A stretch of DNA of 64,000 nucleotides from Eledone cirrhosa (lineage: Eukaryota): assembly GCA_964016885.1 (NCBI GenBank), contig OZ024752.1, positions 37,944,001-38,008,000 of the forward strand, read 5' to 3'. A program made the translations under genes and the position numbers. The notes under the pieces are model-generated. The model was not told the origin of the DNA. It ran no database searches and saw only the letters and a list, made by a program, of their open reading frames with translations. Shown here one piece after another: positions 5,058 through 29,363 of this stretch. Positions within the stretch are counted from its first letter, which is position 1. Every line of letters starts with the position of its first letter.

Positions 5058-5104
5058 TATCAATAATGCAATTTGAAAGAAAGAGATACATTGTTGTCTA
5101 GCCC

Positions 5105-7599: not shown

Positions 7600-7674
7600 C
7601 CGACTATAATTTGAAATAAGTTTTAGGTCTCGGACATACTTTCTGAGATCATCACAATTAGGACATTTCTTCTC
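7600..7674 (-). CDS. Cassette mini-exon 19: EKKCPNCDDLRKYVRDLKLISNYSR
   Basis: ttttacag/gtatgt, 75 nt, open phase 0-0, CxxC; most similar in pattern to the template segment. Confidence 0.8.
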
Positions 7675-8421
7675 CTGTAAAATGTTATATTGTATATGAC
7701 TCAAGTTAGATTATAGTGTTAGGTCAAGGACAGTTAATCTAACTAATAATTGACTCAGACTGATCCCTGGGGCTCTTGTTCTTTTTATTACCATCTTGAC
7801 ACAACAAACTCTCCAATGTTGGTGCCACGAAAGATACATCAAGTATACCCTATCAGATGGTTGGTGATAGGAAGGGCATCCAGCAGTACAAACCATACTG
7901 AAAAGGGTTGAAAGGAATCTTCAGTTGTATCAAGTGGTCAGTAGCTCTGCATGAGTAATTTGTCTTGTATAAGAGACAGCTGCAATTATGTGATGCCCCT
8001 TAGGTGTTGTCACCAGCTCACGGTGGTGGGATTAGGATGTGTGGAGTCTTAATGGTTGTTGCTCATTGACACCTTTGTATATAAGGACTCAAGGTGTCAT
8101 GAGGTAAGTCAGCTCTCAATCCAAGTTTTCTCTGAGATATGATGGCATGGCGTTATATATGAGTAGTGTGACATTGAGGTTGATGCTGAGCTGGCAATTG
8201 GCCTCCTTAGTATTCAGCTGAACTATTGGATTCATTCAGGTGGAATGCTATTGCATTGTTTTTGCCACACAAAGCTCCAATCTCCAGATCTTGAAATTGA
8301 AATACGTTGCCAGTGCTGACATGTTGTTTGTGAACCCTTCCTACCCTTGCAAGTAAGGGGAACAGATGTTAAATGATGATGTTTCATAATACCAATGTGA
8401 TTAGAAGTTTCACGAACATAC

Positions 8422-8487
8422 CTTAGCAAACCGATCAACAGCTCTTATAAAATCCTCCTCAGTACAAGAATCACAATCCAAGCACGG
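8422..8487 (-). CDS. Cassette mini-exon 18: PCLDCDSCTEEDFIRAVDRFAK
   Basis: ttttacag/gtatgt, 66 nt, open phase 0-0, CxxCxxC. Confidence 0.75.
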
Positions 8488-9499
8488 CTGTAAAATGTTA
8501 TATTTTATTTTTAGAAACATCATATTCTATATGAATCAAGTTAAATTGGGGTGTTAGGCCAAGGACAGTCAATCTATTTAATGATTGACAAAGACTATTC
8601 CCTGGGGCTCTTGTTTATTTTATCATAATCATTACACAGCAATCTCTCTAGTGTTAGTACCACAAAAAATACATCCAGTATACCCTTCAAGGTGGTTGGT
8701 GATAGGAAGGGCATCCAGCAGTACAAACCATACACAAATGGGTTAAAACGAATCTTCAGTTGTATCAAGTGGTCAGTAGCTCTGCTTGAGTAATTTTTCT
8801 TGTATAAAAAACAGCTGCAATTATGTGATGTTCCTTTAGTTTTGTACCCAACTCATGGCGGTAGGATTAGGATGTGTAAGGTCCATATTCTCAGATGAGC
8901 ACAGATCTGGACAATTTCACAATATATGTGGAACATTCGACACTGTTAAGCAACACTAGAGAGTTGCTGATGGACACAGCCCCTTAGGAGTGCATGGCTG
9001 CATTGAATCGGTCGACACGGTGTAAAATAGAAACATCCAGTGATAACCATCAAGGTGTTATTCAGGGATACAGCTAACTTCCTAGTTTGGGAGCTCCAGC
9101 ACCATACAAAGTAGGTGTACTCCACAACATTGTAGACCAAGATAGGGTACTGGTATGTAGGGTGCATGTGCTAGTACCCCATGATAAACATGTCAAGCAG
9201 TGGAGATGGTTGTTCTTCATGGACAAAAGGACTTGAGGTGGTGTCTACCTGTCAGCTTTTAGTTCAATTTTACTCCATTATATAGGAATGGTATCCTATT
9301 GAGGTTAATGCTGAATTGGCGATCAACTTCCTTCAAGTGGAATGTTATATCAGTCATGCTCAGAGTCAATCTCCAGATCTTGAAATATGTTGCCAGTACT
9401 GACTATGTCCGTGAACCCTTCCTACCCTTTGAAGTAAGGGGAATTGATGTTAAATGTTGATGTACAGTGATAATATAATTAGAAGTTTCAGGAACATAC

Positions 9500-9562
9500 C
9501 TGAGATAAATTTTTAAGAGCTTCATCGTATTGAAGTCCTTGACAAATGTCGCAGTCCCATAC
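9500..9562 (-). CDS. Cassette mini-exon 17: VWDCDICQGLQYDEALKNLSQ
   Basis: ttttacag/gtatgt, 63 nt, open phase 0-0, CxxC. Confidence 0.73.
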
Positions 9563-10950
9563 CTGTAAAATGTTATATTTTATGGGAGTCGAGTTAGATT
9601 GTAATGTTAGGCCAAGGACATAATTCTATCCAATGACTGACTCAGACTTATCCCTGGGGCTCTTGTTCCTCTTATTATAATCATGATGCAACAACTTATC
9701 TAGTGTTGGTGCCACAAAAGATACATCCAGTATACCTTTTAAGATGGTTGGTGATAGGAAAGGCATCCAGTAGTAAAAACCATACTGAAAAGAGTTGAAA
9801 GGAGTCTTCAGCTGTGTCAAGTGATCAGTAGCTCTGCTTGAGTAATTTTTCTTGTATAAGAAAAATTACTCAAGCAGAGCTACTGATTAAGCTGTAATTA
9901 TGTGATGTTCCTTAGGTGTTGTCACCAGCTCACGGTGGTGAGATTAGAATGTGTGGGGTCTATATTCTCAGGTGGACAGAGATCAAAGCACTCAATATAT
10001 GTGGAGCATTCTGTACTGGTGAACTACACTACTAAGCTACTGATGGACACAGCACCAAGCAATGTATGCCTGCACTGAATCGGCTGAAGTGTACATAGCT
10101 GGATGAGGGTCACAATGTCACCCTTGAGTGAGGTTTGCACCTGGGATGAGGGCTGTATAGGAGATGACGTACAATTGGGCTGATTAAGATATCTGTTGAC
10201 AGCTAACTCTCCATGTCTGAAGTATGTTGAAATCCAAGTCTCGCAGTTCTGCAATGACATGAGGAATTTAAGACAGTATGACTTTAAGTGTTGTTGGCTC
10301 AGTAGTTGAGAATTGTCAGCCGTCATGGAGCAGATGATTTGGGTCTATTCAGGCATTGGTTATCAACCTATGTGTGTGATGTTCCTTATAGAAAGGTGTA
10401 GGAACAATGCTTGAAAGAACAGGTAGATACTCAGTCTAAGCTGGAGACATCTTGTGATAACCATCAAGGTGTTATTCTGAGATATATCTAGTTTCTTAGA
10501 GTGGGAGCTTCTGCACAATGTAGCAGAGAGATACTCCATAGTAGACTAATATAGGGTACTGGTACGTAAGGTGGCTATGCTAGCACCCAATGGTAAACCT
10601 TCAATACAGTGTAGAAAGTCGTTCCCTGTAGACAACTTTGCAGATAAGGACTTCTAATGTTGTCTGTAAGTCAGCTGTCAGGCCAATTTCACTCAAAGAA
10701 AAGAGTGAGTGGTGTTATATGGGAATGGTATTTCATCGAGGTTAATACTGAACTGGCGATTGGCTTCCTTTAGGTGGAATGACATATCAGTCATTCTTGC
10801 CATGCTCAACTTCAATCTCCAGATCTTGAAATATGTTGCCAGTACTGACTTGGTGTTTGTGAACCCTTCCTACCCTTGCAAGTAAGGAGAACAGATGTTA
10901 AATGATGATGATGTACAGTGACAATGTTATCAGAAGTTTCATGAACATAC

Positions 10951-11016
10951 CTCATTCAAATCATTAATAGCGTTTAAGAAATCATCATCAGTACATTCAA
11001 TGCATTCCTTGCACGG
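10951..11016 (-). CDS. Cassette mini-exon 16: PCKECIECTDDDFLNAINDLNE
   Basis: ttttacag/gtatgt, 66 nt, open phase 0-0, CxxCxxC. Confidence 0.75.
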
Positions 11017-12003
11017 CTGTAAAATGTTACATTTTATTTTTAGAAATCTCATATTTTATACGAGTCAAGTTAGATTATAATGTTAAGCCAAAGACAGTCA
11101 AACTATCTAATAATTGACTCAGACTGATCCCTGGGGCTCTTGTTCCTTTTATTATAATCATGACATGACAACCTCTCTAGTGTTGGTGTCACAAAAGATA
11201 CATCTAGTATACCATTAAGATGGTTGGTGATAGGAAGGGCATCCAGCAGTAAAAACCATATTGAAAAGGGTTGAAAAGAGTCTTCAGTTGTATCAAGTGG
11301 TCAGTAGCTCTGATTGAGTAATTTTTCTTTTATAAATGTGATGTCCCTTAGGACAGAGATCCGGGCACTTAATGTATGTTGAGCAGTCTGTACTGATAAA
11401 CTATACTAACAGGCTGCTGAATGACACAGCATACAGCAGCGCATGGCTACATTGAATTAGCCAACACTGGCCCCAAGTGGTTTATCGCCTGGTTTGAGGG
11501 GTGTAGAACAAATGTCTGAGAGCAGAGGTAGATACTCAGTTGATGTAGGATGGAGACAATCAGTGATAACCATCAAGGTGTTGTTCATGGATATATCCAG
11601 CTTCTTAGAGTGGGAGCTCCTGCACCATACAAGGGAGGTGTACTCCTCAGCACTGTAGACAAAGATAGGGTCCTGGTATGTAGGGTGGATATGCTAGCAT
11701 CCTATGATAAAGCCAATAAGCAGTGTAGAAGGTTGGTCCTTAGTGACACCTTTGCATGTAAGGACTCGAGGTGCTGTCTGTAGCTCAGCTGTTAATGCAA
11801 TTTTACTCCGAGAAAGAAGCGTGTGACATTATATGGGAATGCCATATCAGTCATGCTCAACTTCAATCTCCAGAGCTTAAAATATGTTGCCAGTACTAAC
11901 TTGGTCTTTTATGAACATCTTCCTACCCATGTTAGTAAGGAGAACAGATGTTAAATGATGATGTTGCATATTGACAATGTAATTAGAAATTTAAGTGACA
12001 TAC

Positions 12004-12069
12004 CCGAGATATACTTGCAAGACTTTCTTCAAAATTCAGTCCCATGCAAATACCGCAATCCAATAGCGG
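12004..12069 (-). CDS. Cassette mini-exon 15: PLLDCGICMGLNFEESLASISR
   Basis: ttttacag/gtatgt, 66 nt, open phase 0-0, CxxC. Confidence 0.75.
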
Positions 12070-12716
12070 CTGTAAAATGTTATATTCTATAAGTCAAGTT
12101 AGATTGTAGTATTAGGTCAAGGACAGTCAATCTATCTAATAATCGACTCAGACTGATCCCTGGGGCTCTTGTTCCTATTATAATCCGGACACGATAATCT
12201 CTCCAGTGCTGGTGCCACAAACGATACATCCACTATACCCTCTAAGATGGTTGGTGATAGGAAGGGCATCCAGCAGTAAAAAAACTATACTGAAAATGGG
12301 TAAAAGAAGTCTTCAGTTGTATCAAGTGGTCAGTAGCTCTGCTTGTGTAATTTTTCTTGTATAAAAGGCAACTGCAATTATGTACCTTAGGTGTTGTAAC
12401 TAACTCACAGTGGTAGGGTTAGGATGTGTGTGTCCATATTCTCAGGTGGCCAGAGATCCTGGTACTCTCTCAAAATATGTGGAGCATTCTGTACTGGTGA
12501 ACCATACTAGCAGGCTCCTGCTGGACACAGCCCCCTGTGGTGAATCATGCCGTATCAGTCATCTTTGCCATGCTCAGCTTCAATCTCCAGATCTGGAAAT
12601 ATGTTGCCATTACTAACTTGGTGTATGTGAACCCTTCCTACCCTTTCAAATAAGGAGAACAGATGTTAAATGACAATGATGTACAGTGACAACAATTAGA
12701 AGTTTCACGAACATAC

Positions 12717-12773
12717 CTTATTATTAGGTAATTTCGGTTTGTGTTTGTTACAAAATCTGCAATGATCATTCAA
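12717..12773 (-). CDS. Cassette mini-exon 14: LNDHCRFCNKHKPKLPNNK
   Basis: ttttacag/gtatgt, 57 nt, open phase 0-0, CxxC. Confidence 0.72.
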
Positions 12774-13928
12774 CTGTAAAATATTATATTGTATATAAGA
12801 CAAGTTAGACTGTTATGTTAAGCCAAGGACAGTCAATTTATCCAATGATTCTCTCAGACTGATCCCTGGGGTTCTTGTTCCTTTAATTAATCATGACAAC
12901 ACCCCTAGTGCTGGTGTCACAAAAACTACATCCAGTTAAGGTGGTTGGTGATAAGGAAGGCATCCAGCTGTAAAAACAATACTGAAAATAGTTGAAAGTT
13001 TTCAGTTGTGTCAAGTGGTCAGTAGCTCTGCTTGAGTTATTCTTTTATAAGAGACATCTGCAATTATGTGATGTCCCTTAGGTGTTGTAAGCAGCTTATG
13101 GTGGTGGGGTTAAGAAGTGTGGGGTCCATAATCTCAGGTTGACAGAGATCAAGGAACACTCTCAATATATGCTGAACAGTCTGCACTGGTGAGCTACCCT
13201 AACAAGCTCCTGATGGTCACAGCCCCCAGCAATGCATAGCTGCCTCAAATTGGCCAACACTTGTGTGTAGCTGATTCAGGGACCCCCACTCCTTGTAAGG
13301 GTGGTTAGGACCTTATTGGGGGGTGACATTCAATAGGGCAGATCAAGATGTCTCTCTCCATGTCTGAAGTATGTTGAAATCTGTGTCTCACAGCTCTGAA
13401 ATGTCATGAGGGATTTATGGCAGTAAATGATTAAGTGCTGTAGGCTCAGTAATTGAGAATTCTCAGCCATGTCATGGAGCAGATGACTTGGGTCTATTCA
13501 GGCCTTGGTTTTCAACCTACGTGTATGATGATCCAGCACCATACAGGAGGTGTAATCCACAGCACTGAAGATCAAGATAGGGTACTGGTATGTGGGGTGG
13601 ATGTGCTAGCACCTCATGATGAACTTGCCAAGCAGTGTAGAAGGTTGTTGTTCACAGACACCTTTGTATGTAAAGACTCGAGGTGGTGTCTTCGATCAGC
13701 TGTGAGTCCAATTTCATCCCCAAGAAAGATGATTTGGTGATTGACTTCATTCAGGTAGAATGCCATATGAGACATCTATGTCATGCCCAGCTTTAAACAC
13801 CAGGTCTTGAAATATGTTGCCAATACTGATTTTGTGTTTGTGAACCCTTCCTACCCTTGCAAATAAGGGGAACAGATGTTAAATGATGATGTACAGTGAT
13901 AATGTAATTAGAAACTTCAGGAACATAC

Positions 13929-13994
13929 CCGAGTTAAATTCTTTATTTCTTTGTTAAAATTAAAATCACTGCATATACTGCAATCCTTGTGAAT
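13929..13994 (-). CDS. Cassette mini-exon 13: IHKDCSICSDFNFNKEIKNLTR
   Basis: ttttacag/gtatgt, 66 nt, open phase 0-0, CxxC. Confidence 0.75.
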
Positions 13995-15330
13995 CTGTAA
14001 AATGTTATATTGTCAAGTTAGATTGAAGTGTTAAGCCAAGGACAGTCAATCTATCTAATAATCCCTGGGGCTCTTGTTCCTTTCATCATAATTACGACAC
14101 GACAACCTCTCTAGTGCTGGTGCCATGAAAAATACATCCAGTATACCCTCTAAGATGGCTTGTAATAGAAATGGCATCCAGAAGTATAAACCACACTAAA
14201 AAGAGTTGAAAGTGATCAGTAACTCTGCTTGAGTTATTTTTTTTTGTGTAAGTTACAGCTGCAATTATGTGATGTCCCTTCGGTGTTGTAACCAGCTCAC
14301 GGTTGTGAGATTAGGATGTGTGGAGTCCATAGTCTCAGGTTGAAAGAGATCTGGGCACTCTCTCAATATATGCTGAGCAGTCTGCACTGGTGAACTACCC
14401 TAACAAGCTCCTGATGGACACAGCCCCCAGCAATAAATGGCTGCATTGAATTAAGTGACCACAGTATGTGGCTGATTAGGGACAACCACTGCCCCACTAA
14501 TAGATGTAGCTCCCAGGAAGTGGGTCCTATTGGAGTTGACACTCAATTAGGCACATGAAGATGTTTGTTGCTAGCTCGCTCTCTATGTCTGAAGTATGTT
14601 GAAATCTGTGTCTCGTAGCTCTGCAGTGTCACGAGAAATTTAGGACAGTATGAGATCAAGTGTTGTTGGCTCAGTAGTTGAGAATTGTCTGCGGTGTCAT
14701 GGAGCATATGATTTGGGTCTATTGAGGCCTTGCTTATAAACCTATGAGTGTGATGTTCCTTATGAAAAGGTGTAGGAAAAATATGTGAGAGAACAGGCAG
14801 ATACTTGGTGCAAGATGGAGACAGCCAGTGATGACCTTTAACGTGTTGTTTAGGGATATATTAAGCTTCTTAAAGTGGGAGCCCTTGCACCATTCAGGGG
14901 ATGTATACTTCACAGCAATGTAGGCCATAATAGGGTACTGGAATGTAGTGTGGATGTGCTAGCACCTCATGATAAACCCGCCAAGCAGTGTAGAAGGTTG
15001 TTGCTCATTGACACCTTTGTATATAAGGACTTAAGGTGCCATGAGGTAAGTCAGCTCTCAATCCAATTTTTCTCTGAGATATGATTGCATGGCGTTATAT
15101 ATGAGTGGTGTGACATTGAGGTTGACGCTGAGCTGGTAATTGGCCTCCTTAGTATTCAGCTGGACTATTGGATTCATTGATTTTGCCACACAAAGCTCCA
15201 ATCTGCAGATCTTGAAATATGCTGCCAGTGCTGACATGTTTGTGAACCCTTCCTACCCTTTCAAGTAAGAAAAACCTATGTAAAATGATGTTGTACAGTG
15301 ACAGCATAATTAGAAACTTCAGGAACATAC

Positions 15331-15414
15331 CGGGGTAAAATTTGAACTCAAAATTTCTTCTTCTTCTATTTCTGAGGCATCATAAAAGTCACAATCAGTG
15401 CAAAATACGAATAT
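15331..15414 (-). CDS. Cassette mini-exon 12: IFVFCTDCDFYDASEIEEEEILSSNFTP
   Basis: ttttacag/gtatgt, 84 nt, open phase 0-0, CxxC; seen at end of ORF 15319..15534. Confidence 0.75.
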
Positions 15415-16089
15415 CTGTAAAATGTTACATCTTATATTAGTCAAGTTAGATTGTAGTGTTAGGCCAAGGACAGTCAATATATAATGATTGGTACAGAACG
15501 ATCCCTGGGCTCTTGTTCCTTTTATCATAATCATAACACAACAAACTCTCTAGTGTTGGTGCCACGAAAAATAGATCCAGTATACCCTTTAAGGTGGTTG
15601 CACTTCATGATAAACCTTCCAAGCAGTGTAGAAGGTTGGTTGTCATGGACACCTTTACATGTAAGGACTCAAGGCGCTGACAGTAGGTCAGCTATCAGTC
15701 CAATTTCACTCCAGAAAGGAGGGTGTAGCGTTATATGGGAATGGTATCCCATTGAGGTTAATGTTGATCTGGCGATTGGCTTCCTTCAGATGGAATGACC
15801 TATTAGTCATCTTTGCCATGCTCAACTTCAATCTCCAGATCTTGGAATATGTTGCCAGTACTGACTTGGTGTTTGTGAAGCCTTCCTACTCTTGCAAGTA
15901 AGGGTAATGGATGTTATATAATGAAGATGTACAGTGATAATGTAATTAGAAGTTCCAGGAACATACCTCATTTACACTTTGTACTGACTTGGTGTTTGTG
16001 AAGCCTTCCTACTCTTGCAAGTAAGGGTAATGGATGTTATATAATGAAGATGTACAGTGATAATGTAATTAGAAGTTCCAGGAACATAC

Positions 16090-16152
16090 CTCATTTACAC
16101 TTTGAACATGGTCAGGGAAGTTGAATCCCGCACAAAAACCGCAGCTCAATTC
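16090..16152 (-). CDS. Cassette mini-exon 11: ELSCGFCAGFNFPDHVQSVNE
   Basis: ttttacag/gtatgt, 63 nt, open phase 0-0, CxxC. Confidence 0.75.
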
Positions 16153-17077
16153 CTGTAAAATTGTATATTTTATACGAGTCAAGGTAGATTATAGTGTTAG
16201 GCCAAGGACAGTAAATTTATCGAATGATTGACTCTGATCCCTGGGACTCTTGTTCATTTTATTTCAATCATGATACGGCAAACTCTCCAGGGTTGGTGTC
16301 ACGAAAAATACATCTGGTGATAACCATCACGGATATGTCTAGCTTCTTTGTGTGGGAGCCCCAGCACTATACTGGAGAAGTGTACTTCACAGCACTGTGA
16401 GGGCCATATTCTCAGGTGAGTAGATACATGAGCACTCTCTCAATATATCTTGAGCATTCTGTACTGGTGAACTACACTAGCAAGCTGGTAATGGATACAA
16501 TCACCAGCTGTGCAAGGCTGCATTGAATTGGCTTAGACCAGGGTGAGGCTTATTCGGGGAAACTCGCTCCCTCTAAAGGAGTTTAGTGACTGTCGTAAGG
16601 CGTGTAGGAAAAATATCTGAGAGAACAGGTAGATACTCAGTGTAAGATGGAGACGAGTAATAACCATCAAGGTGTTGTTTAGGGATATATCCAGCATCAT
16701 ACAGGGGAGGTGTAATCCACAGCACTGAAGATCAAGATAGGGTACTGGTATGTAGGGTGGATGTGCTAGCACTGCACCATATATCTAACAAGCAATGTAG
16801 AAAGTTGTTGCTCATAGACACCTTTGTACATAATGATTCAAGGTGATGTCTATTGGTCAGCTGTCTTAAGGTTATTGCTGAACTGGCAATCGCCTTCCTT
16901 CAGGTGGAATGTTATATCATTCATTTGTGTCATGCTCAGCTTGAATCTTCAGATTTTGAAATATGTTGCCAGTTCTGACTTGGTGTTTAGGAACCCTTCC
17001 TACCCTTGCAAGTAAGGGCAATGGATGTTAAATGATGTTGTACAGTGACAATATAATTAGAACTTTTGCAAACATAC

Positions 17078-17140
17078 CATATTATTGTATTCAGCTCTTT
17101 CAAAATCCCATTTCGTACAGTTTTTACAATGCTGGTACTT
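17078..17140 (-). CDS. Cassette mini-exon 10: KYQHCKNCTKWDFERAEYNNM
   Basis: ttttacag/gtatgt, 63 nt, open phase 0-0, CxxC. Confidence 0.75.
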
Positions 17141-17845
17141 CTGTAAAATATCATATTCTATGAGTCAAATTAGATTATAGTGTTAGACCAAGGATAGATA
17201 ATCTATCTAATGATTGACTCAGACTGACCCCTAGGGCTCTTGTTCCTTTTATTATAATCATGACAGGACAACCTCTCTACTTTGGGTGTCTCTAAAAATA
17301 CATCCAGTATATTCTTTAAGGTGGTTGGTGATAGGAAGGGTATTTGGCAGTACAAACCATACTGAAAAGGGTTGAAAGGAGTCTTCAGTTGTCTCGAGTG
17401 GTCCGTAGATCCGCTTGACTATTTTCTCTCATATAAGATACAGCTGCAATTATGTAATGTTCCTTAGGTGTTCTCACAAGCTCACAGTGGTGGGATTAGA
17501 ATGTGTGAGTTCCATATTCTCATGTGGGCAGAGATCCAGCCACTCAATATTTGTCGGGCTTTCTGTACTGGTGAACTACACTACTAAGCTACTGACAGAC
17601 ACAGCACCAAGGAGGGCATGCCTACTTTGAATTGGGCAATATCTGTGTGTAGCTAATTCAGGGAACCCACTCTCCCCAAGCAAGATAGCTACTGGAAAGT
17701 GGATCCTATTTATGATGACATTCCATATGTTGATAGTTCTGAGTTGCTGTTTGCAAACCCTTCCTACCTTTGCAAGTAAGGGGGAACAGATGTTAAATGA
17801 TGATGATGTATAGTGACAATGTAATTAGAAGTTTCATGAACATAC

Positions 17846-17911
17846 CTCAGTAAATTCTGTAATAGCTTCATCGCAAGCGTGTCTGTTACACAGAGAGCAA
17901 TCCATGTATTG
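17846..17911 (-). CDS. Cassette mini-exon 9: QYMDCSLCNRHACDEAITEFTE
   Basis: ttttgcag/gtatgt, 66 nt, open phase 0-0, CxxC; seen at end of ORF 17834..18034. Confidence 0.75.
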
Positions 17912-18999
17912 CTGCAAAATGTTATATTTTATATTAGTCAAGTTAGATTGTAGTGTTAGGCCAAGGACAGTCAATCTATCTAATGATTGACACAGAATGA
18001 TCCCTGGGGTCGTTGTTCCTTTTATTATAATCATGACACAACAAACTCTCTAGTGTTGGTGCCATGAAAGATACATCCAGTATACCCTTTAAGATGGTTG
18101 GTGATAGGGTGAGCATCCAGCAGTAAAAAGAGTTGAAAGGAGTCTTCAGTTGTATCAAGTGGACAGTAGCTCTACTTGAGTAATTTTCCTTGTATAAGAG
18201 ACAGCTGCAATTATGTGATGCCCCCTAGGTGTTGTCACCAGCTCACGGTAGTGGGATTAGGATGGGTGAGGTCCATATTCACAAGTGGGCAGAAATCTAA
18301 GCACTCTCTCAAAATACGATGAGTATTCTGCACTGGTGAACCATACTAGCAGGCTCCACCCCAGCAATGCATGGCAGTAGAATCTGTCAACCTGGTGTGT
18401 GCAACTGATTCAGGGACACCCTCTGAGACTGAGGAAGGTTATCGCCTGGTTTGAGGGGTGTAGGAACAATGTGTGAGAGAACAGGTCGATACTCAGTCTA
18501 AAATGGAGACAGCCAGTGATAACCATCAAGGTGTTGTTTAGGGATATATCTAGCTCCTTTGTGAGGGAGCTCCAGCAGCATACATGGGAGGTGTACTCCA
18601 TAGAACTGTAGACCCAGATAGGGTACTGGTATGTATGGTGGATGTGCTTGCACCTCATGATAAACTTTCCAAGCAGTATAGAAGGTTGGTCATCACGGAC
18701 ACCTTTGCATATAAAGACTCAAGTCGCTGACGGTAGGTTAGCTGTCAGTCCAATTTCACTCCAAGAAAGGAGGGTGTCGTGTAATATCGGAATGGTATCC
18801 TATTGAGGTTAATTCTGAACTGGCAATTGGTTTCCTTCAGGTATCAATCATGCCCAGCTTCAATCTGCAGATCTTGAAATATGTTGCCAGTATTGACTTG
18901 GCTGTTTGTGAACCCTTCCTACCCTTGCAAGTAAGGGAAATGGATGTTAAATGATGATGTTGTACAGTGACAATGTAATTACAAGTTTCATGAACTTAC

Positions 19000-19065
19000 C
19001 CCAACAAAATGTTTCTTAGTCTTTTCATAACTGTGTCTCCCACAATAAATGCAATTTTGGAATTT
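19000..19065 (-). CDS. Cassette mini-exon 8: KFQNCIYCGRHSYEKTKKHFVG
   Basis: ttttacag/gtaagt, 66 nt, open phase 0-0, CxxC. Confidence 0.75.
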
Positions 19066-19739
19066 CTGTAAAATTTTATATTTTATATTTTATATTTAAA
19101 AATGCTATATTTTACATAAGTCAAGTTAGATTGAAGTGTTAGGCCAAGGACAATCAATCTATCCAATGATTGACTCAAAATACTCTCTGGGGCTCTTGTT
19201 CCTTTTATTACAATCATGACACAACAACCTCTCTAGTGCTGGTGCCACAAAATATACATCCAGTATAAACCACACTGAAATGGGTTAACAGGATTCTCCA
19301 GTTGTATCAAGTGGTCAGTAGCTCCAGTAGCACTGTAGATCAATTTAGGGTACTGACATGTAGGGTGGATATGCTAACACCCCATGGTAAACCTGCCAAG
19401 CAGTATAGAAGGATGATCCTCAAGGGCACCTTTGCACTTATGAACTTGAGCCACTGTCCATTGGTCAGCTGACAGTCCAATTTCACTTCAAGAAAGAAGG
19501 GGGTGGCATTATATGGGAACGCTATCCCATTAAGGTTAATGCTGACATAGTGATTGGCTTCCCTCAGGTGGAATGACAGTCATCTTTGTCATGTTCACCT
19601 TCAATCTCCAGATCTTGAAATATGTTGCCAGTACAGACTTGCTGTTTGTGAAGACTTCCTATCCTTGCAGGTAAGGGGAACAGATGTTAAATGATGATGA
19701 TGTACAACAACAATGTATTTAGAAGTTTCGCAAACATAC

Positions 19740-19805
19740 CTGACTTAAAGTAGAAACTTTTCGATTGTAATTGAGTCCTTCACAAATACTGCATTCCAAT
19801 TCCTC
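19740..19805 (-). CDS. Cassette mini-exon 7: EELECSICEGLNYNRKVSTLSQ
   Basis: ttttatag/gtatgt, 66 nt, open phase 0-0, CxxC. Confidence 0.75.
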
Positions 19806-20961
19806 CTATAAAATGTCATATTTCACACGAGTCAAGTTAGATTATTGTGTTAGGTCAATCTATCCAATGATTGACACAGACTGATCCCTGGGGCTCTTGT
19901 TCCTTTCATTATAATCACGACACGACAACCTCTCTAGTATAGGTGCCATGAAAAATACATCCAGTACATCCTTCAATGTGGTTGGTGATAGGAAGGGCAT
20001 CCAGCAGTACAAAATATACTGAAAAGGGTCGATATTCTCAGGTGAGCAGAGATCCGGCGGATACCTTCACAATATATCTTGAGCTTTCTTCCCATGCAAA
20101 CCACACTAGCAAGGTGCTGATGTACACAACCCCCGGTGGTGAGTGGTTGCATGCCTTATCAGTCATATTTGTCATATTCAGCTTCAATCTCTTGGGTCTA
20201 TTCAGGCATTGGTTATCAACCTATGTCTGTGATGTTCCAAATGAAAAGGGAGGGAACAATACCTGAGAGAACAGGTAAATACCTGGTGTAAGATGGGGAC
20301 ATCCAGTGATAACCCTCAAAGTGTTGTTTAGGGATATATCTAGCTCCTTTGTATGGGAGCCCCTGCACTATACAGGGGAGGTGTACTTCACAGCAATGTA
20401 GATCCAGAAAAGGTACTGGTATGTAGCTGTGCTAGCACCCTATGATAAACCTGCCAAGCAGTGTAGAAGGTTGTTCCTTGTAGACACCTTTGCACATAAG
20501 GACTCGTGATGGTGTTTATAGGTCAACTGTCAGGCCAATTTCACTAAAAAAAAGGAGTGGTGTTATATGGGAATGGTATTCCATCGAGGTTAATACTGAA
20601 CTGGCAATTGGCTTCCTTCAGGTGGAATGACATATCAGTCATTCTTGCCATGCTCAACTTCAATCTCCAGATCTTGAAACATATTGCCAGTACTAACTTG
20701 GTGTTTGTGAACCCTTCCTATTCTTGCAAGTTAAATGATGATGTGCAATGATAATTGTTTCTACATTTGGCACAAGGCCAGCAATTACCCAGTACATTAC
20801 TGGTACTTTATTTTATCGACCATGTAAGGATGAAAGGAAAATTTAACCTCGGCAGGATTTGAACTCAGAACGTAAAGGGACGTAACTATGCTGGAAAGCA
20901 TGGCGTCCACGGCCCTTGATGATGTACAATGATAATGTAATTAGAAACTTCATAAACATAC

Positions 20962-21039
20962 CGGAGTAAGATGTGAAGTATCTCCTCTGGCTTTGGCAAT
21001 CTCTCTGTTATCAGTACAATTATTGCAAGCCATGTACCA
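20962..21039 (-). CDS. Cassette mini-exon 6: WYMACNNCTDNREIAKARGDTSHLTP
   Basis: ttttacag/gtatgt, 78 nt, open phase 0-0, CxxC. Confidence 0.75.
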
Positions 21040-22423
21040 CTGTAAAATGTTATATTGTATACAAATTAAGTTAGACTATAGTGATAGGATAAAAGACAGT
21101 CAATCTATCTAATGTTTGGCACAGAACAATCCCTGGGGCCCTTGTTCCTTTTATTATATATAATCATAACAACAACCTCTCCTGTGTTGGTGCCATAAAA
21201 AATAGATCCAGTATATCCTTTAAGGTGATTGGTGATAGGAAGGGCATCTGGCAGTACAAACCATACTGAAAAGGGTTGAAAGGAGTCTTCAGTTGTATCA
21301 AGTGGTAAGTAGCTTTGCTTGAGTAATTTTTCTTGTATAAGAGACAACTGCAATTATGTGTTGTCACCAGCTCACAGTGGTGGGATTAGGATGTGTGGGG
21401 TCCATATTCTCGGGTGAGCAGATATATGGGCAATATAACTTGAGCATTCTGTACTGGTAATGGATGCAACCACCAGCTGTGCAAGGCTGCATTGAATCGG
21501 CTGAGACCAGGGTGAGGCTTATTCAGGGAAACTCGCTCCCTCTAAAGGAGTTTAGTGACTGTGGTGAGGTGTGTAGGAAAAATATCTGAGAGAACAGGTA
21601 GATACTCAGTGTAAGATGGAGACAGCCAGTAATAACCATCAAGGTGTCGTTTAGGGATATATCTAGCTTCTTTGGGTGGGGGCTCCAGCATCATACAGGG
21701 GAGGTGTAATCCACAGCACTGAAGATCAAGATGGGGCACTATTATGTAGGGTGGATGTGCTATCACCCCATGATAAACTTTCCAAGCAGTGTAGAAGGAT
21801 GGTCCTCAGGGGGACTTTTGCATGTTTAAGACTTGAGCCGCTGTCTGTAGGTCAGCTGTCAATCCAATTTCACTCCAAGAAAGGAGAGTGTGGCGTTAAA
21901 TGGGAATGGTATCCCATTGAGTTTAATGCTGAACTGGCAATTGGCTTCCTTCAGGTGGAATGCCATATCAGTCATGCTCAGCTTCACTCTCCAGATCTTG
22001 AAATATGTTGCCAGTACTGAATTGGTGTTTGTAGGAAACAACACATCACCCAGTTCAATTTTCAGACCGGGTGATGTGTTGTTTCCTTGAGCAAAACACT
22101 TTATTTCACATTGCTCCAGTTTACTCAGCTGTAGAAATGAGATGATAGGGACTGGGGTCCCTATCATTCCACTGCAAAGTGGTCATGGAGGTGTCACGGC
22201 AAAAAAACACCCAGCACTCACTGTAAATGAGGTTGGTGTTAGGAAGGGCATCCAGCTGTAGAAATCAAGCCAGAATCAGTTCCCGTCCCACCCTTGCAAG
22301 CAGGGAAAAGCGGACATAAAATGATGATGATGATGATGAACCCTTCCTACCCTTTCAAGTAAGGGAAACAGATGTAAAATGATGATGTACAGTGACAATG
22401 TTATTAAAACTTCAGGAACATAC

Positions 22424-22489
22424 CTCAGTTAATTTCCTCATATCTGTTTCAAAATCAAGATCCTCGCAAGTTTTGCAATCATTGTACAT
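22424..22489 (-). CDS. Cassette mini-exon 5: MYNDCKTCEDLDFETDMRKLTE
   Basis: ttttacag/gtatgt, 66 nt, open phase 0-0, CxxC. Confidence 0.75.
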
Positions 22490-23258
22490 CTGTAAAATGT
22501 TATATTTTATACGAGTCGAGTTAGCTTGTAGTGTTAGGCCAAGGACAGTCAATCTATGTCATGATTGACTGATCCCTGGGGCTCTTGTTTCTTTTATTAT
22601 AATCATGACAGGACAACCTCTCTAGTGCTGGTGCCATGAAAAATACATCCAGTATACCCTCTAAGATGGTTGGTGATAGAAATGGCATCCAGTTGTAAAA
22701 ACCATATGAAAAAAGGTTGAAAGGAGTTTTCAGGTGTATCAAGGGGTCAGTAGCTCTACTTGAGTTATTATTCTTATATAAGATACAGCTGCAATTATGT
22801 GATGTCCCTAGGTGTTGTAAACAGCTCACAGTGGTGAATTAGAATGTATGGGGTCCATATTCTCAAGTGGACAAAGATCCAGGTACTCTCTCAATGTATG
22901 TTGTGCAGTCTGCACTGGTGAACTACCCTAACAAGCTCCTGATAGTCACAGCCCCAGCAATCCATATCTTCATTGAATTGGCTGGCACTTGTCTGTAGCT
23001 GATTCAGGGACCCCCACTCCCTGTAAGGGTGGTTAGTGCTTTATTGGAGATGACATTCAATAGGGCAGATCAAGATGTCTCTCTCCATGTCTGAAGTATG
23101 TTGAAACCTAAGTCTTGCAGCTCTGCAGTGTCATGAGAGATAGGACAGTATGAGATCAAGTATTGTTGGCTCAATAGTTAAGAATTCTCAGCCATGAGAG
23201 TAAATGATGATAATGATGATGTAGATTGACAATTTAATTAGAAGATTCACAAACATAC

Positions 23259-23324
23259 CTGAACAAAATGTTCATCAATTTTTTCCAGAGTATGGTCCGT
23301 ACAATTTTTACAATGCTGGTATTT
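23259..23324 (-). CDS. Cassette mini-exon 4: KYQHCKNCTDHTLEKIDEHFVQ
   Basis: ttttacag/gtatgt, 66 nt, open phase 0-0, CxxC. Confidence 0.75.
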
Positions 23325-23852
23325 CTGTAAAATGTTATATTGTATATGAGTCAAGTTAGATTATAGTGTTAGGCCAAGGACGGTCAATCTATCCAATGAT
23401 TGACACAGACTGATCCCTGGGGCTCTTGTTCCTTTCATTATAATCACGACAAAACAACATCTCTAGTATAGGTGCCATGAAAAATACATCCAGTACATCC
23501 TTCAATGTGGTTGGTGATAGGAAGGGCATCCAGCAGTACAAAATATACTGAAAAAGGCTCGATATTCTCAGGTGAGCAGAGATCCGGCGGATACCTTCAC
23601 AATATATCTTGAGCTTTCTTCCCATGCAAACCACACTAGCAAGGTGCTGATGTACACAACCCCCAGTGGTGAGTGGTTGCATGCCTTATCAGTCATATTT
23701 GTCATGCCCAACATCAATCTCCAGTTCTTGAAATATTTTGCCAGTACTGACTTGGTATTTGCGAACCCTTCCAACCCTTGCAAATAAGGGGAACAGATGT
23801 TAAATGATGATGTTGTACAGTGACAATGAAATTAGAAGTTTCAGGTACATAC

Positions 23853-23918
23853 CTTAGTAAAATTTTCTACATCTTCATCACAAGCATGTTTGTCACAAAT
23901 AGAGCAATCCATGTGTTG
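23853..23918 (-). CDS. Cassette mini-exon 3: QHMDCSICDKHACDEDVENFTK
   Basis: ttttacag/gtatgt, 66 nt, open phase 0-0, CxxC. Confidence 0.75.
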
Positions 23919-24546
23919 CTGTAAAATGTTATATTTTATGAGTCGAGTTAGATTAGTGTTAGGCTAAGTACAGTCAATCTTTCTAATGATTGACTCAGAC
24001 TGTACCCTAAGGCTCTTATCCTTTTTATTATAATCATGACTCAACAACCTCTCTTATGTTAGTACCATGAAAAACGCATCCAGTATACCCATCGAGGTGG
24101 TTGGTGATAGGAAGGGCATCCAGTAGTATAAACCATACTAAAAAGAGTTGAAAGGAGTCTTCAGTTTTTAGGGTTCTGGTATGTAGGGTAGATAAACCTG
24201 CAAATCAGTATAGAAGGTTGTTGCTCATTAACACTTTTGCACGTAAGGAGTCGAGGTGGTGTCGATTGTCAGCAGTCAATCCAATTTCACACAGAAAGAA
24301 GGGTGTGGCATTATAGGGGAATGGTATCCCACTAAGGTTAATGTTGATCTGGTGATTGGCTTCCTTCGGGTGGAATGACATATCAGTCATTCTTGCCATG
24401 CTCGGCTTCAATCTCCAGATCTTGAAATATGTTGCCAATACTGACTTGGTGTTTGTGAACCCTTCCTATCCTTGCAAGTAAGGAGAACGGATGTTAAATG
24501 ATGATGATGTACACCCATAATGTAATTAGAAATTTCAGGAACATAC

Positions 24547-24603
24547 CTTAGCAAAATCTTCAAGATGAATTTTGTAATCTTTTTCACTGCTATTCATGTA
24601 CAG
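24547..24603 (-). CDS. Cassette mini-exon 2: LYMNSSEKDYKIHLEDFAK (no Cys)
   Basis: ttttacag/gtatgt, 57 nt, open phase 0-0. Confidence 0.68.
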
Positions 24604-25938
24604 CTGTAAAATGTTATATTGTATATAAGTTAAGTTAGATTATAGTGTTTGTCCAAGGACAGTCAATCTATCGAATGACTGACTTAGACTGATCCCTGGG
24701 GCTCTTGTTCCTTTTATTATAATCACGACATGACAATCTCTCTAGCATTATTGCCACAAAAGATACATCCAGTATACCCTTTAAGGTGGTTGGTGAAAGG
24801 AAGGGCATCCAGCAGTAAAAAACTATACTGAAAATGGGTGAAAGAAGTCTTCAGTTGTATCAAGTGGACAATAGACCTGCTTGAGTAATGTTTCTTGTAT
24901 AAAAGGCAACTGCAATTATGTGATGTCCCTTAGGTGTTGTAACCAGTTCATGGTAGTGGTATTAGAATGTGTTGGGGTCTATATTCTGAGGTTGGCAGAG
25001 ATCCAGGAACTCTCAATATATGTTGAGCAGTCTGCACAGGTAAACCACACTGACAAGCTGCTGATAGACAACCCCCAGCAGTGAATGATAGCATTGAATC
25101 AGACATCACCTGTGTCTAGCGGATTCAGAGACCACCACTTCCTGTAAGGGAGGTCAGCGCCTGGAGAGAGAATTGTATGGAGGATGATATTCAATAGGGA
25201 AGATCAAGATGTTTCTCTCCAAGTCTGAAGTATGTCAAAGTCTGTGTCTCGCAGCTCTGCAGTGTCATGAGATTTAGGACAATATTACTTTAAGTGTTGT
25301 TGGCTCAGTAATTGAGAATTCTCAGCCATGTCATGGAGCAGATGATTCAGGTCTATTTAGGCCTCGGTTATCAACCTACGTGTGTGATGTTCTCTATGAA
25401 AAGGTGAATGAACAATGTTTGAGAGAACAGATAAATACTTAGTGTAAGATGGAGACATCCAGCGATAACCATCAAGGTGTTGTTTAGGGATATATCTAGC
25501 TCACATACAGGGGAGGTGTACTTCACAGAACTGAAGATCAAGATATGTACTGGTATGTAGGTTGGATGTTCTAACACCTCATGATAAACCCGCCAAGGAG
25601 TGTAGAAAGTTGTTGCTCATTGACACCTTTCCACGTAATGATTGAAGATGGTGTCTATTGGTCAGCTGTCAGTTCAATTTCACTCTGAGAAAGAAGGGTG
25701 TGTTGTTATATGGGAATGGTATCCCATTAAGGTTAATGCTGAACTGGCAATCGCCTTCCTTCAGGTGGAATGTTATATCATTCATCTGTATCATGCCCAG
25801 CTTGAATCTTCAGAGTTTGAAATATATTGCCAGTTCTGACTTGGTGTTTGAGAACCCTTCCTACCCTTGCAAGTAAGCGGAACAGATGTTAAATGGTGAT
25901 GTACAGTGAAAATGTAATTAGAAATTTCAGGAACATAC

Positions 25939-26004
25939 CAGTCGAAAATCTCTTACGGCTTTTGCAAAACCGGGTCCAGCACAATCTTTGCAATCCATGA
26001 TCCA
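25939..26004 (-). CDS. Cassette mini-exon 1: WIMDCKDCAGPGFAKAVRDFRL
   Basis: ttttacag acceptor, gtatgt donor, 66 nt, open phase 0-0, CxxC. Confidence 0.75.
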
Positions 26005-26127: not shown

Positions 26128-27712
26128 CTAGCATTAAAGCTCGGCGTTGCTCGGGGTCATTAAGTTACCAAAGTTAGGTTGCACCACCCATTTTATGGCA
26201 GCACTTTTCTGGGTGAATGAATTGCAGACCTAGAAGCATGAGCTGTGCCAGCAGTGACAATTATAGTTTCGCCTATGGATATTATCTCTGTGCAAAAAAG
26301 TGCTGAAATTTATTGTTTCACAGTACTTGCGCAACACACGGGTAGACAATACCAGCCGAACAACAGAGCTGCGATGGAGTTGTTCTGCATGGTTGTCTGT
26401 GTGTTTTATAAATTTAAGACAGTAGGGAGGGTTATGATATGAGGGAGAGTTAGCTGCTGTTTCTAGCAGGTTTAGTAACCTCATAGAGGATATGTGTTTT
26501 CTAAATTTAAGACAGTAGGGAGTGGTGTGATATGGGGGAGAGTTAGCTGCTGTTTCTAGCAGGTTTAGTGACCTCATAGAAGATATGTTTTCTAAATTTA
26601 AGACAGTAGGGAGGGTTGTGGTATGGGGGAGAGTTAGCTGCTGTTTCTAGCAGGTTTAGTGACCTCATAGAGGATATTATTGTTTATCATTATCTATAAA
26701 AGGCAGATTGTTGTTGTTGTTGTGTGTGTGCACATGTTCCATGTTTATACATTTGCACAATTTCAAACCGATTCGACTCAAAGTCTGTAAGAATCCACGT
26801 TCGTTGAGAGGTTTTAAAAAAGATTTATCGCTTGTTGTTGAATAAATGTATCTGTTGCTTTTGAATAATTGTCGTTTCGTATGAAATGTAATAATTGTTT
26901 CTACTTTTTTGGCACAAGGCCAGCAATTACCCAGTACATTACTGGTACTTTATGTAATAATAAACGTTCTCTCTCTCTCCCTCTCACTCTCTTCTCTCTC
27001 TCTCTTCGGCAATCACGCACGTTGTTTAATTGCTTTAAATGTTGTTAATGAATAGTTGTGTATTCATGGTTATAAATCCCACACGTTGTTTAATTGCTTT
27101 AAATGTTGTTAATGAATAGTTGTGTATTTGTGGTTATAAATCCCACACGTTGTTTAATTGCTTTAAATTTTTTTTTATCAATTTATGTGAGTGTGTGTTT
27201 GTATGTGTTTGTAAATAAATCAGTAAGTTTGAAGCAACTAAAAGTTAGTGTGGTTATAAATCACGCACGTTGTTTAATTGCTTTAAATGTTTTTTTATCA
27301 TTTGAAGTGAGTGTGTGTTTGTATGCGTTTGGAAATAAATCAGTAATTTTGAAGTATAAAAGAGAAAGTAGCAAAATGTGTGGGTTGTAGATAGAGGTAA
27401 GCAGATGATATGAGAGAGTAAAATGGACAGTATCACCATCAAGCTTGGAAAGAGAAAGTAGCAGAAAGTATGAAGTTGTATAGATTTTGAATGGTAGTGG
27501 AAAGAGTTTAGCAGTTTAAATGAGAGAGAAAAATCGTAAAATATTGAGTTTTATCTATTTTTTGCGTAATTGTGGGTGAAATTGAAAAAATTATATGTGC
27601 CAAGACGCAATCGAAGCTATTTCGAATACTGAATTGTAAATTTCAATTGAAGAAATTCTATATCGTAGATTTCTATAACAAAGGAGCATGTCCATACACT
27701 GAGCTTTATAGA
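26128..27712 (-). mobile_element. Non-autonomous Helitron inserted in the first array spacer, with internal tandem repeats
   Basis: Minus strand begins tctataaagctc and ends ccgagcaacgccgagctttaatgCTAG|T; splits the array motif ataatca|..tgacacaac. Confidence 0.7.
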
Positions 27713-28320
27713 TTATGATGACACAACAACATTTCTGGTGCTGGTGCCACAAAAAAAATACATCCAGTATACCCTTTAAGGTGGTTGTTGATAGGAAGGG
27801 CATCTGGCAGTACAAACCACACCAAAAAGTGTTGCAAGGAGTCATCAGTTGTGTGAAGTGGTCAGTACTTCTGCAAGGGAGGCATATTCCACAGCACTGT
27901 AGACCAAGATGGGGTACTGGTATGTAGAGGGGATGCGCTCGCACCCCATGATAAACCTGCCAAGCAGCATAGAAGGTTGTTCCTTATAGACACCTTTGCA
28001 TGTAATGACTCGAGGTGGTGTCTATAGGTCAGCTGTCAATCCAATTTCACTCCAAGATATGATAGTATAGTGTTATATGGAATTGGTGTGACATTGAAGT
28101 TGACGCTAAGCTGGCAATTGGTCTCCTTAATATTCAGGTGGAATGCCATAACAGTCATCTTTGCCATGCTCAGCTTCAATCTCCAGATCTTGAAATATGT
28201 TACCAATACTTACGTGGTCTGTGACAAACTTACCTACTTATGCAAGTAAAGAGAACAGATGTTAAATGATGATGATGATATATAGTGACAATGTAATTAG
28301 AAGTCTTTTTACGAACATAC

Positions 28321-29279: not shown

Positions 29280-29363
29280 TTTCTCCAAATTTATTTATTT
29301 TATCCAATACTCTAGTTACACCGATGCTCTTATCAAGTGAGTCCATAGACATATTAACAGCAT
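29280..29363 (-). CDS. PROM1: Prominin-like exon: (H)AVNMSMDSLDKSIGVTRVLDKINKFGE
   Basis: Acceptor ttttgttatttag, donor gtaagt; 84 nt, phase 1 to 1, open frame. Confidence 0.85.

Follow-up and report, generated by a model that had tools for sequence, protein, structure and literature searches.

The window analyzed here, 64,000 nucleotides of Eledone cirrhosa contig OZ024752.1, carries on its minus strand a stretch of what, judging from homology, is an intact octopod prominin-1-A gene with an array of 19 short cassettes inside one of its introns. An earlier sequence-only reading of the host as prominin-like is borne out by a match of the exon at 33858–33655 to the Pfam prominin profile (PF05478; 62.4 bits against a cut-off of 34.3, E = 3e-17) and by tblastn matches to Octopus prominin-1-A that are collinear over ~84 kb and span the TM2 to TM5 exons. 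The joined frame contains no stops in 615 aligned columns, the gene groups with octopod prominin-1-A in a tree (bootstrap 80/88), and single-exon searches of the genome returned the host gene and one distant paralogue. The first coding exons and a few others were not located, and the exon counts below leave these out.

Upstream of the array, constitutive exons encode the TM2 region with a Cys-rich loop (33653..33858; 62–69% identical to cephalopod prominins) and the end of TM3 with the start of the first large extracellular loop (31573..31699; tblastn), followed by an exon predicted from frame continuity (30124..30190) and one resting on tblastn and the open joined frame (29280..29363). Next comes the 197-nt exon at 28321..28517, here called the parent exon, whose 3' part encodes a default CxxC tip. 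Downstream of the array, the exon at 4227..4295 (tblastn, 52–54% to octopus prominin) continues the octopus match directly after the parent exon, and the next constitutive exons are predicted at 2758..2821 (joined frame open) and 1367..1428 (frame continuity). As had been proposed, both the donor at 28321 and the acceptor at 4295 are phase 0 in the joined frame. The parent exon is single copy in the genome, and protein searches with it as query found no relative (0/122 candidates in one search); a single match to an axolotl mucin-1 with SEA-like repeats was rejected as chance.

All 19 minus-strand segments described earlier were recovered with their splice sites, lengths and open phase-0 frames, from 26004–25939 to 7674–7600. 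Cassettes 1–19 lie at 25939..26004, 24547..24603, 23853..23918, 23259..23324, 22424..22489, 20962..21039, 19740..19805, 19000..19065, 17846..17911, 17078..17140, 16090..16152, 15331..15414, 13929..13994, 12717..12773, 12004..12069, 10951..11016, 9500..9562, 8422..8487 and 7600..7674. They form a series of tandem homologous exons of similar length (57–84 nt) and one phase within one intron: eleven measure 66 nt, two 57 nt (cassettes 2 and 14), three 63 nt (10, 11 and 17), and cassettes 19, 6 and 12 measure 75, 78 and 84 nt, respectively. The acceptor is TTTTACAG in 17 cassettes, TTTTATAG in one and TTTTGCAG in one, with a TAG in cassette 7 that would be a stop if read through from upstream; the donor is GTATGT in 18 and GTAAGT in cassette 8. 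The CxxC is kept in 18/19 cassettes, after four residues in 15 and after three residues in three; in cassette 2, a Cys-to-Ser change together with a deletion of 9 nt removed it. A further in-frame donor lies 48 nt into cassette 1 (25957). Spacing between cassettes is 528–1388 nt, and branch-like YTRAY motifs occur 19–56 nt upstream of their acceptors.

The acceptor-gap-donor pattern has eight matches in the 3.0-Gb genome, all inside the array (reversed control, one), and the surrounding 164 kb contain no further array units. Array copies were found for just one of 18 host exons tested, the parent exon; queries from four others, which included 40 nt of flank, gave 1–29 matches that are probably repeats. 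Among the pieces listed, DNA contigs of three runs, all from one sample that may be the one behind the assembly, each span four to five cassettes with flanks and together cover six different cassettes, at depths of 6–14 that resemble the depth of the parent exon. This cover and the high divergence between cassettes argue against an assembly artefact, which we reject; a simple tandem repeat was also considered and rejected.

Each cassette aligns to the last 78 nt of the parent exon and ends at the homologous donor, and an AG within that exon (28399..28400) aligns with the acceptor AG of every cassette. Blastn against the array and alignment place the approximate duplication template at 27710..28500, comprising the parent exon without its acceptor and ~610 nt of intron, the latter including a fragment of an old dispersed repeat with copies elsewhere in the genome. 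At the level of sequence, these alignments establish that this ~800-nt block was tandemly copied 19 times. The 5' coding half of the copies decayed, while the predicted coding 3' half kept its frame, Cys pair and donor and diversified. An in-frame CAG (in Ile-Leu-Gln) behind TTTTA became the putative cassette acceptor. The parent N-glycosylation sequon, four residues from the end, is kept in 5/19 cassettes; a star-like tree of cassette flanks does not allow the order of duplication to be recovered. The cassettes had been read as interchangeable versions of one exposed segment, and this needs qualification: since they are 3' halves of exon 28517–28321, interchange holds only if an internal donor at 28393 is used.

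Chance origin of the open cassette frames is excluded by their codon content: 0/422 codons are stops versus 33.5 ± 5.4 expected (20,000 base shuffles, minimum 12; log10 P ~ −15.5). The five other frames contain 12–59 stops, and same-length segments directly upstream and downstream contain 33 and 37, with 15/19 and 19/19 segments interrupted. All length differences among cassettes are multiples of three, as against 4/26 indels in the flanks, which together with the stop count supports the earlier argument that a frame kept amid indel-rich neighbors is not neutral. Across the 14 splice-site columns (−8 to −1 and +1 to +6), three changes occurred versus ~23 expected (Poisson P = 3e-7, treating cassette copies as independent); all three are tolerated or towards consensus, and neither AG nor GT was lost in any cassette. 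Cysteine positions are kept in 36/38 cases with both TGC and TGT in use, and Cys codons vary only synonymously in 18/19 cassettes.

Pairwise identity among cassettes is 48%, versus 85% and 82% in the core flanks, and is below both flanks in 171/171 pairs. Estimated omega is 1.65 (2dlnL = 7.0, P = 0.008), or 2.4 without the two Cys columns, and these values are rough since each cassette offers only 19–28 codons and the array is mixed; pooled Nei-Gojobori estimates are dN 0.91 and dS 0.76, and the closest pair, cassettes 3 and 9, has pN < pS. Third codon positions are ~3 times more diverged than flanks, and flank and cassette similarity are uncorrelated (cassettes 4 and 7 are 42% identical, with upstream flanks 95.5% identical), which points to an array that is being mixed by recombination or conversion. 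Stops, splice columns, identity and omega together agree with the proposal that the segments are coding exons under selection and diversifying.

The segments correspond, as expected, to the Cys pair of the first large extracellular loop, at the loop mid-point in a model of the O. vulgaris orthologue, where Cys300 and Cys303 cap a 53-residue helix. Residues 145–448 of this model could be aligned lengthwise to single long hairpins (2ch7_A, Z 7.2, rmsd 9.0, 297 aligned). From its secondary structure and aligned ranges, the segment would map to the distal turn of the loop. Sequence search found no solved prominin structure, and Foldseek gave no clear full-length match; the top rank in VIA-align was TTYH (Z 12–13.6, rmsd 9.7–51).

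A candidate internal donor within the parent exon, TTG/GTAAAT (28387..28395), lies two codons inside the cassette register and would end the exon in phase 0 at 28393. No other donor-like site occurs in the 1773 coding positions examined, a rarity assessed after this one was noticed. The site is weak, scoring 1.0 on a rough matrix made by hand, on which 28321 scores 4.9; GTAAAT is also the predicted constitutive donor of another host exon. Cephalopod orthologues with the same register have Gln, Lys or Ser at that residue, never Val, so the 28393 donor looks derived. A swap through it would shift the Cys pair by 1–2 residues relative to the default tip.

The cassettes are probably spliced in as alternatives, and we give about even chances to the specific arrangement in which lineage-specific half-exons replace the membrane-distal prominin tip via the 28393 donor, with 20 tips in total. 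By default, transcripts would contain the complete parent exon and no cassette; in certain cells or states, 28393 would be used instead, which would remove the default 24-residue tip and join the exon to one cassette of 19–28 residues, itself then spliced to 4295. The five-pass protein would otherwise stay constant and have 20 alternative tips.

The one spliced contig among the pieces listed (X1 record 8; 1946 nt, depth 28.6) contains the whole parent exon, 28321–28517, with no differences and reads through 28393. It comes from four runs of one study for which the kind of library is not on record, in a comparison at 90% likeness that covered 9400–29399 and so leaves out cassettes 18 and 19 and the exon at 4295. 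No junction from 28393 or into a cassette occurs among the 15 listed of 1585, all 15 of which lie in repeats; the comparison was swamped by dispersed repeats, and the contig pieces viewed were the 32 listed of ~324,000. X1 cover was zero in the bin at 16070–16736, which holds cassette 11, and for cassettes 10, 12 and 13 the cover has upper bounds that are low. This hints against inclusion of all cassettes in series in that sample, although holes in contig cover prove nothing.

Alternatively, the cassettes may be real exons added after the whole parent exon, singly or in series, with splicing from 28321 supplying a second or further CxxC modules to the tip. In favor of this, 28321 is the stronger donor and the one that the spliced contig employs, any combination of cassettes keeps the frame since each is phase 0 with an invariant GT, and docking-site scans found no well-supported mechanism of exclusion. 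Such addition would nevertheless give no account of the phase-0 donor at 28393, which is unique and apparently derived, and, as substitutes would, the cassettes share the default tip's register at their start and preserve its terminal sequon. A doubled tip occurs in 0/41 scorable cephalopod prominin sequences, and passages of a review (PMC10967083) describe ER degradation of the mouse protein when 25 residues of EC2 are missing, which indirectly suggests that the loop is length-sensitive. We regard addition as rather unlikely, though as the main competitor to replacement of the tip. A relict array of pseudo-exons, no longer or never spliced, is improbable. As acceptor and donor derive from coding and donor sequence already present in the ancestral unit, finding them is little proof by itself, and the junctions listed include none into a cassette; however, neutral copies cannot diverge ~3 times beyond their flanks and yet carry no stops or frameshifts in 19/19 cases, with Cys codons varying only synonymously in 18/19, and with AG and GT intact throughout, any loss of function would be very recent. 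Silent conversion-donor cassettes occur in antigenic variation, and a library whose cores are copied at the DNA level into the parent exon would fit cores flanked on both sides by parent-locus homology (70% and 77%) and the mosaic exchange between cassettes 4 and 7, but we consider it the least probable reading: donors need no invariant acceptor, yet columns −8 to −1 behave like one, even with a C-to-T change among them that would create a stop on read-through; 15/19 units have stops in their upstream halves; parent-unit flanks, at 70–77%, are below the 82–85% between units; and the parent exon in the spliced contig is identical to the germline one.

If cassettes do replace the tip, how one is chosen is a matter for speculation. 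Since all are multiples of three and lie 528–1388 nt apart, neither frameshift-induced RNA decay nor steric clash would enforce a one-at-a-time choice. Weak acceptors may contribute, as may an ~11-bp element at 27789..27812, a weak docker/selector candidate complementary to a motif 60–75 nt downstream of most cassettes (exact in 11/19, at most three mismatches in 17/19). This element was the best of 358 windows (median −22.7 kcal/mol versus a null minimum of −19.3 in 120 shuffles), its partner recurs inside 15 units, and flank columns are often invariant anyway; scans of 251 and 358 windows found no docking site beyond it. Alternatively, a parent-specific TAG/GTAAGT 87 nt into the intron (28228..28236) could act as a recursive AG-GT site (28234/28233) that regenerates a strong donor, or as a decoy donor. 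It is the only YAG/GTAAGT on the gene strand within 164 kb, GTRAGT is absent from the corresponding stretch in 19/19 units, and it scores poorly as an acceptor (−1.3); a second parent-specific GTAAGT hexamer lies at 28208..28213.

The claim of Dscam-like diversification stands in part. As in the exon 4, 6 and 9 clusters of Drosophila Dscam1, described in passages of PMC6071210 and PMC8373072, tandemly duplicated exons of similar length would vary an extracellular surface, possibly with docker/selector pairing. Dscam1, however, belongs to another protein family, duplicates whole exons with their own splice sites, has conserved docker/selector elements and combines several clusters into thousands of forms, whereas here the acceptor was co-opted from coding sequence and the only candidate pairing is weak. 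Since one array was found among 18 exons tested, diversity would amount to ~20 forms, not combinatorial thousands.

A closer molluscan parallel may be the TEPs, with 12 mutually exclusive exons over 30 kb in Biomphalaria glabrata TEP2 and six in Chlamys farreri TEP, according to the parts of PMC7016707 that treat them. These are likewise alternative exons in tandem that differ in length and sequence around a few fixed residues, one cluster yielding tens of forms of one exposed segment on a constant protein, and the array appears to resemble snail TEP2 more than Dscam1 in its lineage restriction and omega above 1. The TEPs, however, are immune proteins with transcript-proven mutual exclusion; the present host is a five-pass membrane protein without a known immune role, and its predicted half-exon cassettes would compete with a default tip encoded within a constitutive exon. 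The host shares the PF05478 family and its five-pass layout with prominin-1/CD133, and prominins are known to be alternatively spliced; the >20 vertebrate variants mostly involve small optional exons at the N- and C-termini, and the review passages describe no substitution array among them (PMC10967083). A single tip is present in 41/41 scorable cephalopod prominin sequences; arrays may still lie hidden in the genomic DNA of other cephalopods. Neither these sequences nor the literature searched contained a comparable array, in agreement with the earlier statement that no such cluster was known in a prominin.

Given the surface exposure, the long protein branch and an omega above 1, the purpose of such tips may be to alter what parasites, microbes or their adhesins meet on microvilli and shed vesicles, as evasion or decoy, which we put just short of an even chance. 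A role in self-recognition, between cells or between microvilli, is less likely, and gamete or reproductive recognition and other roles are each less likely again. A somatic repertoire of 20 positively selected prominin tips, built from half-exons and a newly gained donor and serving recognition or decoy, is a tentative proposal that we hold somewhat less probable than not; it would be switched on by the new donor in a constitutive exon, possibly via the recursive AG-GT step. If true, prominin would join Dscam and protocadherins as a third, independent way of diversifying the cell surface, reached by a path to exon arrays that the papers searched do not contain. This would also be a case of splicing-based diversification in cephalopods, where, according to passages of PMC6339937, O. 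vulgaris has one Dscam transcript and Dscam is not expanded.

Exon clusters may start from a partial exon, with coding sequence supplying the acceptor and an internal donor perhaps supplying the switch. Annotation pipelines probably miss such arrays, and others may be hidden. The long prominin ectodomain has no agreed molecular function and, in the review passages, no catalytic motif or domain that would explain one (PMC10967083). Twenty natural, positively selected tip variants of 20–28 residues would point to the tip as a binding surface, and would provide a ready panel for finding the prominin ligand.

The gene carrying the cassettes is prominin-like, as the sequence-only reading had proposed: minus-strand exon 33858-33653 matches the Pfam Prominin family and shares 62-69% identity with cephalopod prominins, including O. 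sinensis prominin-1-A. Across the window and 100 kb of neighbouring genome, octopus prominins matched a collinear series of exons on the minus strand, extending between 33.9 kb in the window and a point ~50 kb past its left end, and 18 predicted exons gave 615 aligned columns with no stops. In the tree, the host gene falls with octopod prominin-1-A (bootstrap 80 and 88), and its branch is long, at 0.73 substitutions/site versus ~0.2 in sister octopod lineages. Beyond this locus, two single-exon genome searches gave at most one further hit, a distant prominin-like paralogue (C2:219637793-219637960, 41% identity). The probable last coding exon, ~65.0-65.4 kb beyond the left end of the window (C12 near 37,878,600-37,879,020), has tandem Tyr-Pro-Gln-Glu and Pro-Gly-Pro-rich repeats with no counterpart seen in octopus orthologues; this predicted last exon probably encodes an expanded cytoplasmic tail. 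Elsewhere in the window, non-LTR retrotransposon ORFs (reverse-transcriptase-like and endonuclease-like; identified by eye from translations, the longest 808 aa) occupy 58579-59862, 60367-62793 and 40691-41587 on the minus strand and 45487-46215 on the plus strand, and long intronic tandem repeats comprise an 11/22-nt minisatellite (5099-6096), an AT-rich microsatellite (34096-36404) and a 49-nt array (56776-57908).

The predicted position of the variable segment agrees with the earlier placement of a Cys pair in the large extracellular loop. The O. vulgaris orthologue was modelled with AlphaFold2 from an 18-sequence alignment (mean pLDDT 70.7, pTM 0.47). In this model Cys300/Cys303 would lie at the mid-point of that loop, which spans from about residues 173-182 to 418, and helix 244-296 stops just short of them. 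Residues 145-448 align nearly end to end with 2ch7_A (Z 7.2, rmsd 9.0, 297 aligned), a chemoreceptor domain forming one long hairpin. Since the helix ends before the cysteines and the alignment is hairpin-like, the cassette segment is predicted, from secondary structure and aligned ranges, to form the membrane-distal turn of the loop. TTYH proteins top the structural ranking (Z 12-13.6), in agreement with the TTYH-prominin homology proposed in PMC11405016.

A scan of 4,000-30,000 for minus-strand acceptor-donor pairs recovered all 19 segments (26004-25939 down to 7674-7600) and no others, and their lengths, acceptors and donors were as first described in 19 of 19. All 19 are open in phase 0 and 18 encode CxxC. 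The 422 cassette codons contain no stops, versus 33.5 +/- 5.4 expected from 20,000 shuffles. Stops number 12-59 in the other five frames, and 33 and 37 in the adjoining equal-length segments upstream and downstream. Of 26 flank indels, only 4 are divisible by three. The two Cys columns read TGC or TGT in 36 of 38 cells, and in the 14 splice-site columns three of 266 cells are changed (A>G at -4, C>T at -3 and T>A at +4), against an average of ~1.6 changes per flank column (P ~3e-7, copies treated as independent). Genome-wide (3.0 Gb), the acceptor-gap-donor pattern has eight matches, every one in the array; its reversed control has one. A chance origin of these frames and splice sites is excluded. 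Three DNA runs, all of one sample that may be the assembly's own, give no independent support; among the matches listed, the contigs of each run cover four to five cassettes with flanks (six in total) at depths of 6-14, similar to the parent exon, the constitutive prominin exon at 28517-28321.

Individual cassettes vary in detail. Cassette 1 has two in-frame donors, GTATGT at 66 nt and an inner one at 48 nt; cassette 2 (24547-24603) lacks any cysteine. A third, unpaired cysteine in cassettes 3 (23853-23918), 9 (17846-17911), 16 (10951-11016) and 18 (8422-8487) could allow inter-chain bonds. At 15858-16107 the 3' end of cassette 11 and its donor, but no acceptor, have recently been duplicated in tandem (123 nt, 99% identical).

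The cassettes are half-copies of the parent exon, set in larger units. Each unit copies ~27710-28500, that is, the parent exon minus its acceptor plus ~610 nt of the next intron, including an old dispersed-repeat fragment. The 5' coding half, now intronic, retains 70% identity to the parent and is still matched by octopus prominin in tblastn, and it contains stops and frameshifts. The new acceptor is an in-frame Ile-Leu-Gln stretch aligning with the parent AG at 28400-28399, and cassettes finish at a donor homologous to the parent's; the cassettes thus correspond to the parent exon's last 26 codons, including its own CxxC. The terminal N-glycosylation sequon is kept in five of 19. A YTRAY motif lies 19-56 nt upstream of the acceptor in every unit, with no other AG between them in 12 of 19, and the acceptor TAG of cassette 7 is a stop when read through. 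Units 8, 16 and 18 carry a short acceptor-region duplication just upstream of 19065, 11016 and 8487, with a CTAAC branch-like motif displaced to about -54 to -61 and the cassette-adjacent acceptor intact in all three.

The high divergence first noticed from the sequence is borne out: pairs of cassettes share a median 48% identity (19% as protein) versus 85% and 82% in core flanks, and the cassettes are the less similar part in all 171 pairs. The cassette tree has length 7.8 (8.5 from codon positions 1+2, 5.8 from position 3) and the flank tree 2.0. A codon model puts omega at 1.65 on the cassette tree (P 0.008 versus omega 1) and at 1.75 on the flank tree, rising to 2.4-2.8 once the two Cys columns are removed post hoc. 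Several points warn against over-reading omega: the alignment has only 28 codons, third positions also exceed the flanks, pooled Nei-Gojobori values are dN 0.91 and dS 0.76, the closest pair has pN < pS, and similarity in the flanks does not correlate with similarity in the cassettes (rho 0.03 and 0.13). Cassettes 4 and 7, for instance, share 95.5% upstream versus 42% within the cassette. Cassette net charge ranges from -8 to +4. Within-array exchange has probably homogenised the flanks while the cassettes stayed apart.

The parent exon is present in four sequencing runs, all of one study. A 1946-nt contig from one of them, X1 (depth 28.6), matches 28321-28517 with zero differences and departs from the window sequence beyond both ends, whereas the DNA runs give unbroken 28254-29399 contigs. 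We read X1 as RNA, which implies that the gene is expressed and that at least one form contains the whole parent exon. No cassette junction is among the 15 joints listed of 1585, so the choice between splice models rests on sequence. In one bin alone, 11401-12067, X1 exceeds the DNA runs (summed contig depth 770 versus ~35); since the upstream exon reaches an X1 depth of at most 40, this signal is not the prominin gene's normal mRNA. It may reflect a short stretch of the old repeat fragment matching a highly expressed transcript or, alternatively, an abundant RNA with cassette 15.

That the cassettes are translated as spliced exons is, overall, highly probable. The model we favour, at about an even chance, is that one cassette would take the place of the default tip. 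A candidate donor at 28393 (TTG/GTAAAT) is the sole G/GTRA, GTRAG or G/GTRNG match in 1773 coding positions (591 codon boundaries); it lies in phase 0, two codons inside the cassette register, where orthologues have Gln, Lys or Ser, and GTAAAT also follows another predicted exon of the gene. Its use would swap 24 residues for 19-28. The parent intron also has GTAAGT hexamers at +88 and +108, absent from all 19 units. The first, the only YAG/GTAAGT on the gene strand in 164 kb, has a poor acceptor score; it may be a recursive site that would restore a strong donor once the default tip is removed, or could be a decoy. Downstream of most cassettes lies a motif complementary to an element at 27812-27789 (median pairing energy -22.7 kcal/mol, against a minimum of -19.3 in shuffles); the motif is exact in 11 of 19 units and degenerate in the parent's own copy, a geometry like that proposed for duplication-born docker/selector systems (PMC6071210). 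Because partner copies recur within 15 units, the pairing is only a lead; all three signals were noticed post hoc.

Alternatively, one or several cassettes may be joined after the complete parent exon, which would fit the intact exon in X1 and would give the protein at least one further CxxC tip; we consider this possible and clearly less likely than replacement. Other splicing routes are improbable. So are relict copies, a reading at odds with the stop-free cassettes; gene-conversion donors, which the exchange within the array would fit and the conserved acceptors would not, are slightly less probable still.

Among cephalopod prominins in annotations and assembled transcripts, where genomic arrays could escape notice, each of 41 scorable sequences (43 examined: O. 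sinensis/vulgaris 7, O. bimaculoides 13, Argonauta 1, a Sepia-containing cluster 15/16, other clusters 6 and 1) has one tip, and none an alternative or doubled one. Relative to O. vulgaris, two residues right before the CxxC tip, near the start of the cassette register, are missing from all six O. sinensis RefSeq isoforms; either a deletion or the annotation could account for this. Prominin-1-A is listed in the O. vulgaris ink proteome (PMC10142993). The literature searched, mostly outside subscription papers, yielded no prominin exon cluster or similar cephalopod array; a prominin review (PMC10967083) and studies on Dscam1 (PMC8373072) and O. vulgaris Dscam (PMC6339937) served for comparison. 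The suggested likeness to Dscam extends to the tandem array and not, among the exons tested, to multiple clusters: Dscam1, the classic case, is combinatorial and made of whole-exon copies, unlike this array. Of working systems, snail TEP2 comes closest: 12 mutually exclusive exons encode a single exposed variable segment (PMC7016707). The prominin array appears to work like a tandem alternative-exon cluster and is a candidate for the mutually exclusive class. The array of 19 half-exon cassettes in this octopod prominin is real, strongly selected and diversifying, and is unusual both for the gene family that hosts it and for the way it arose.
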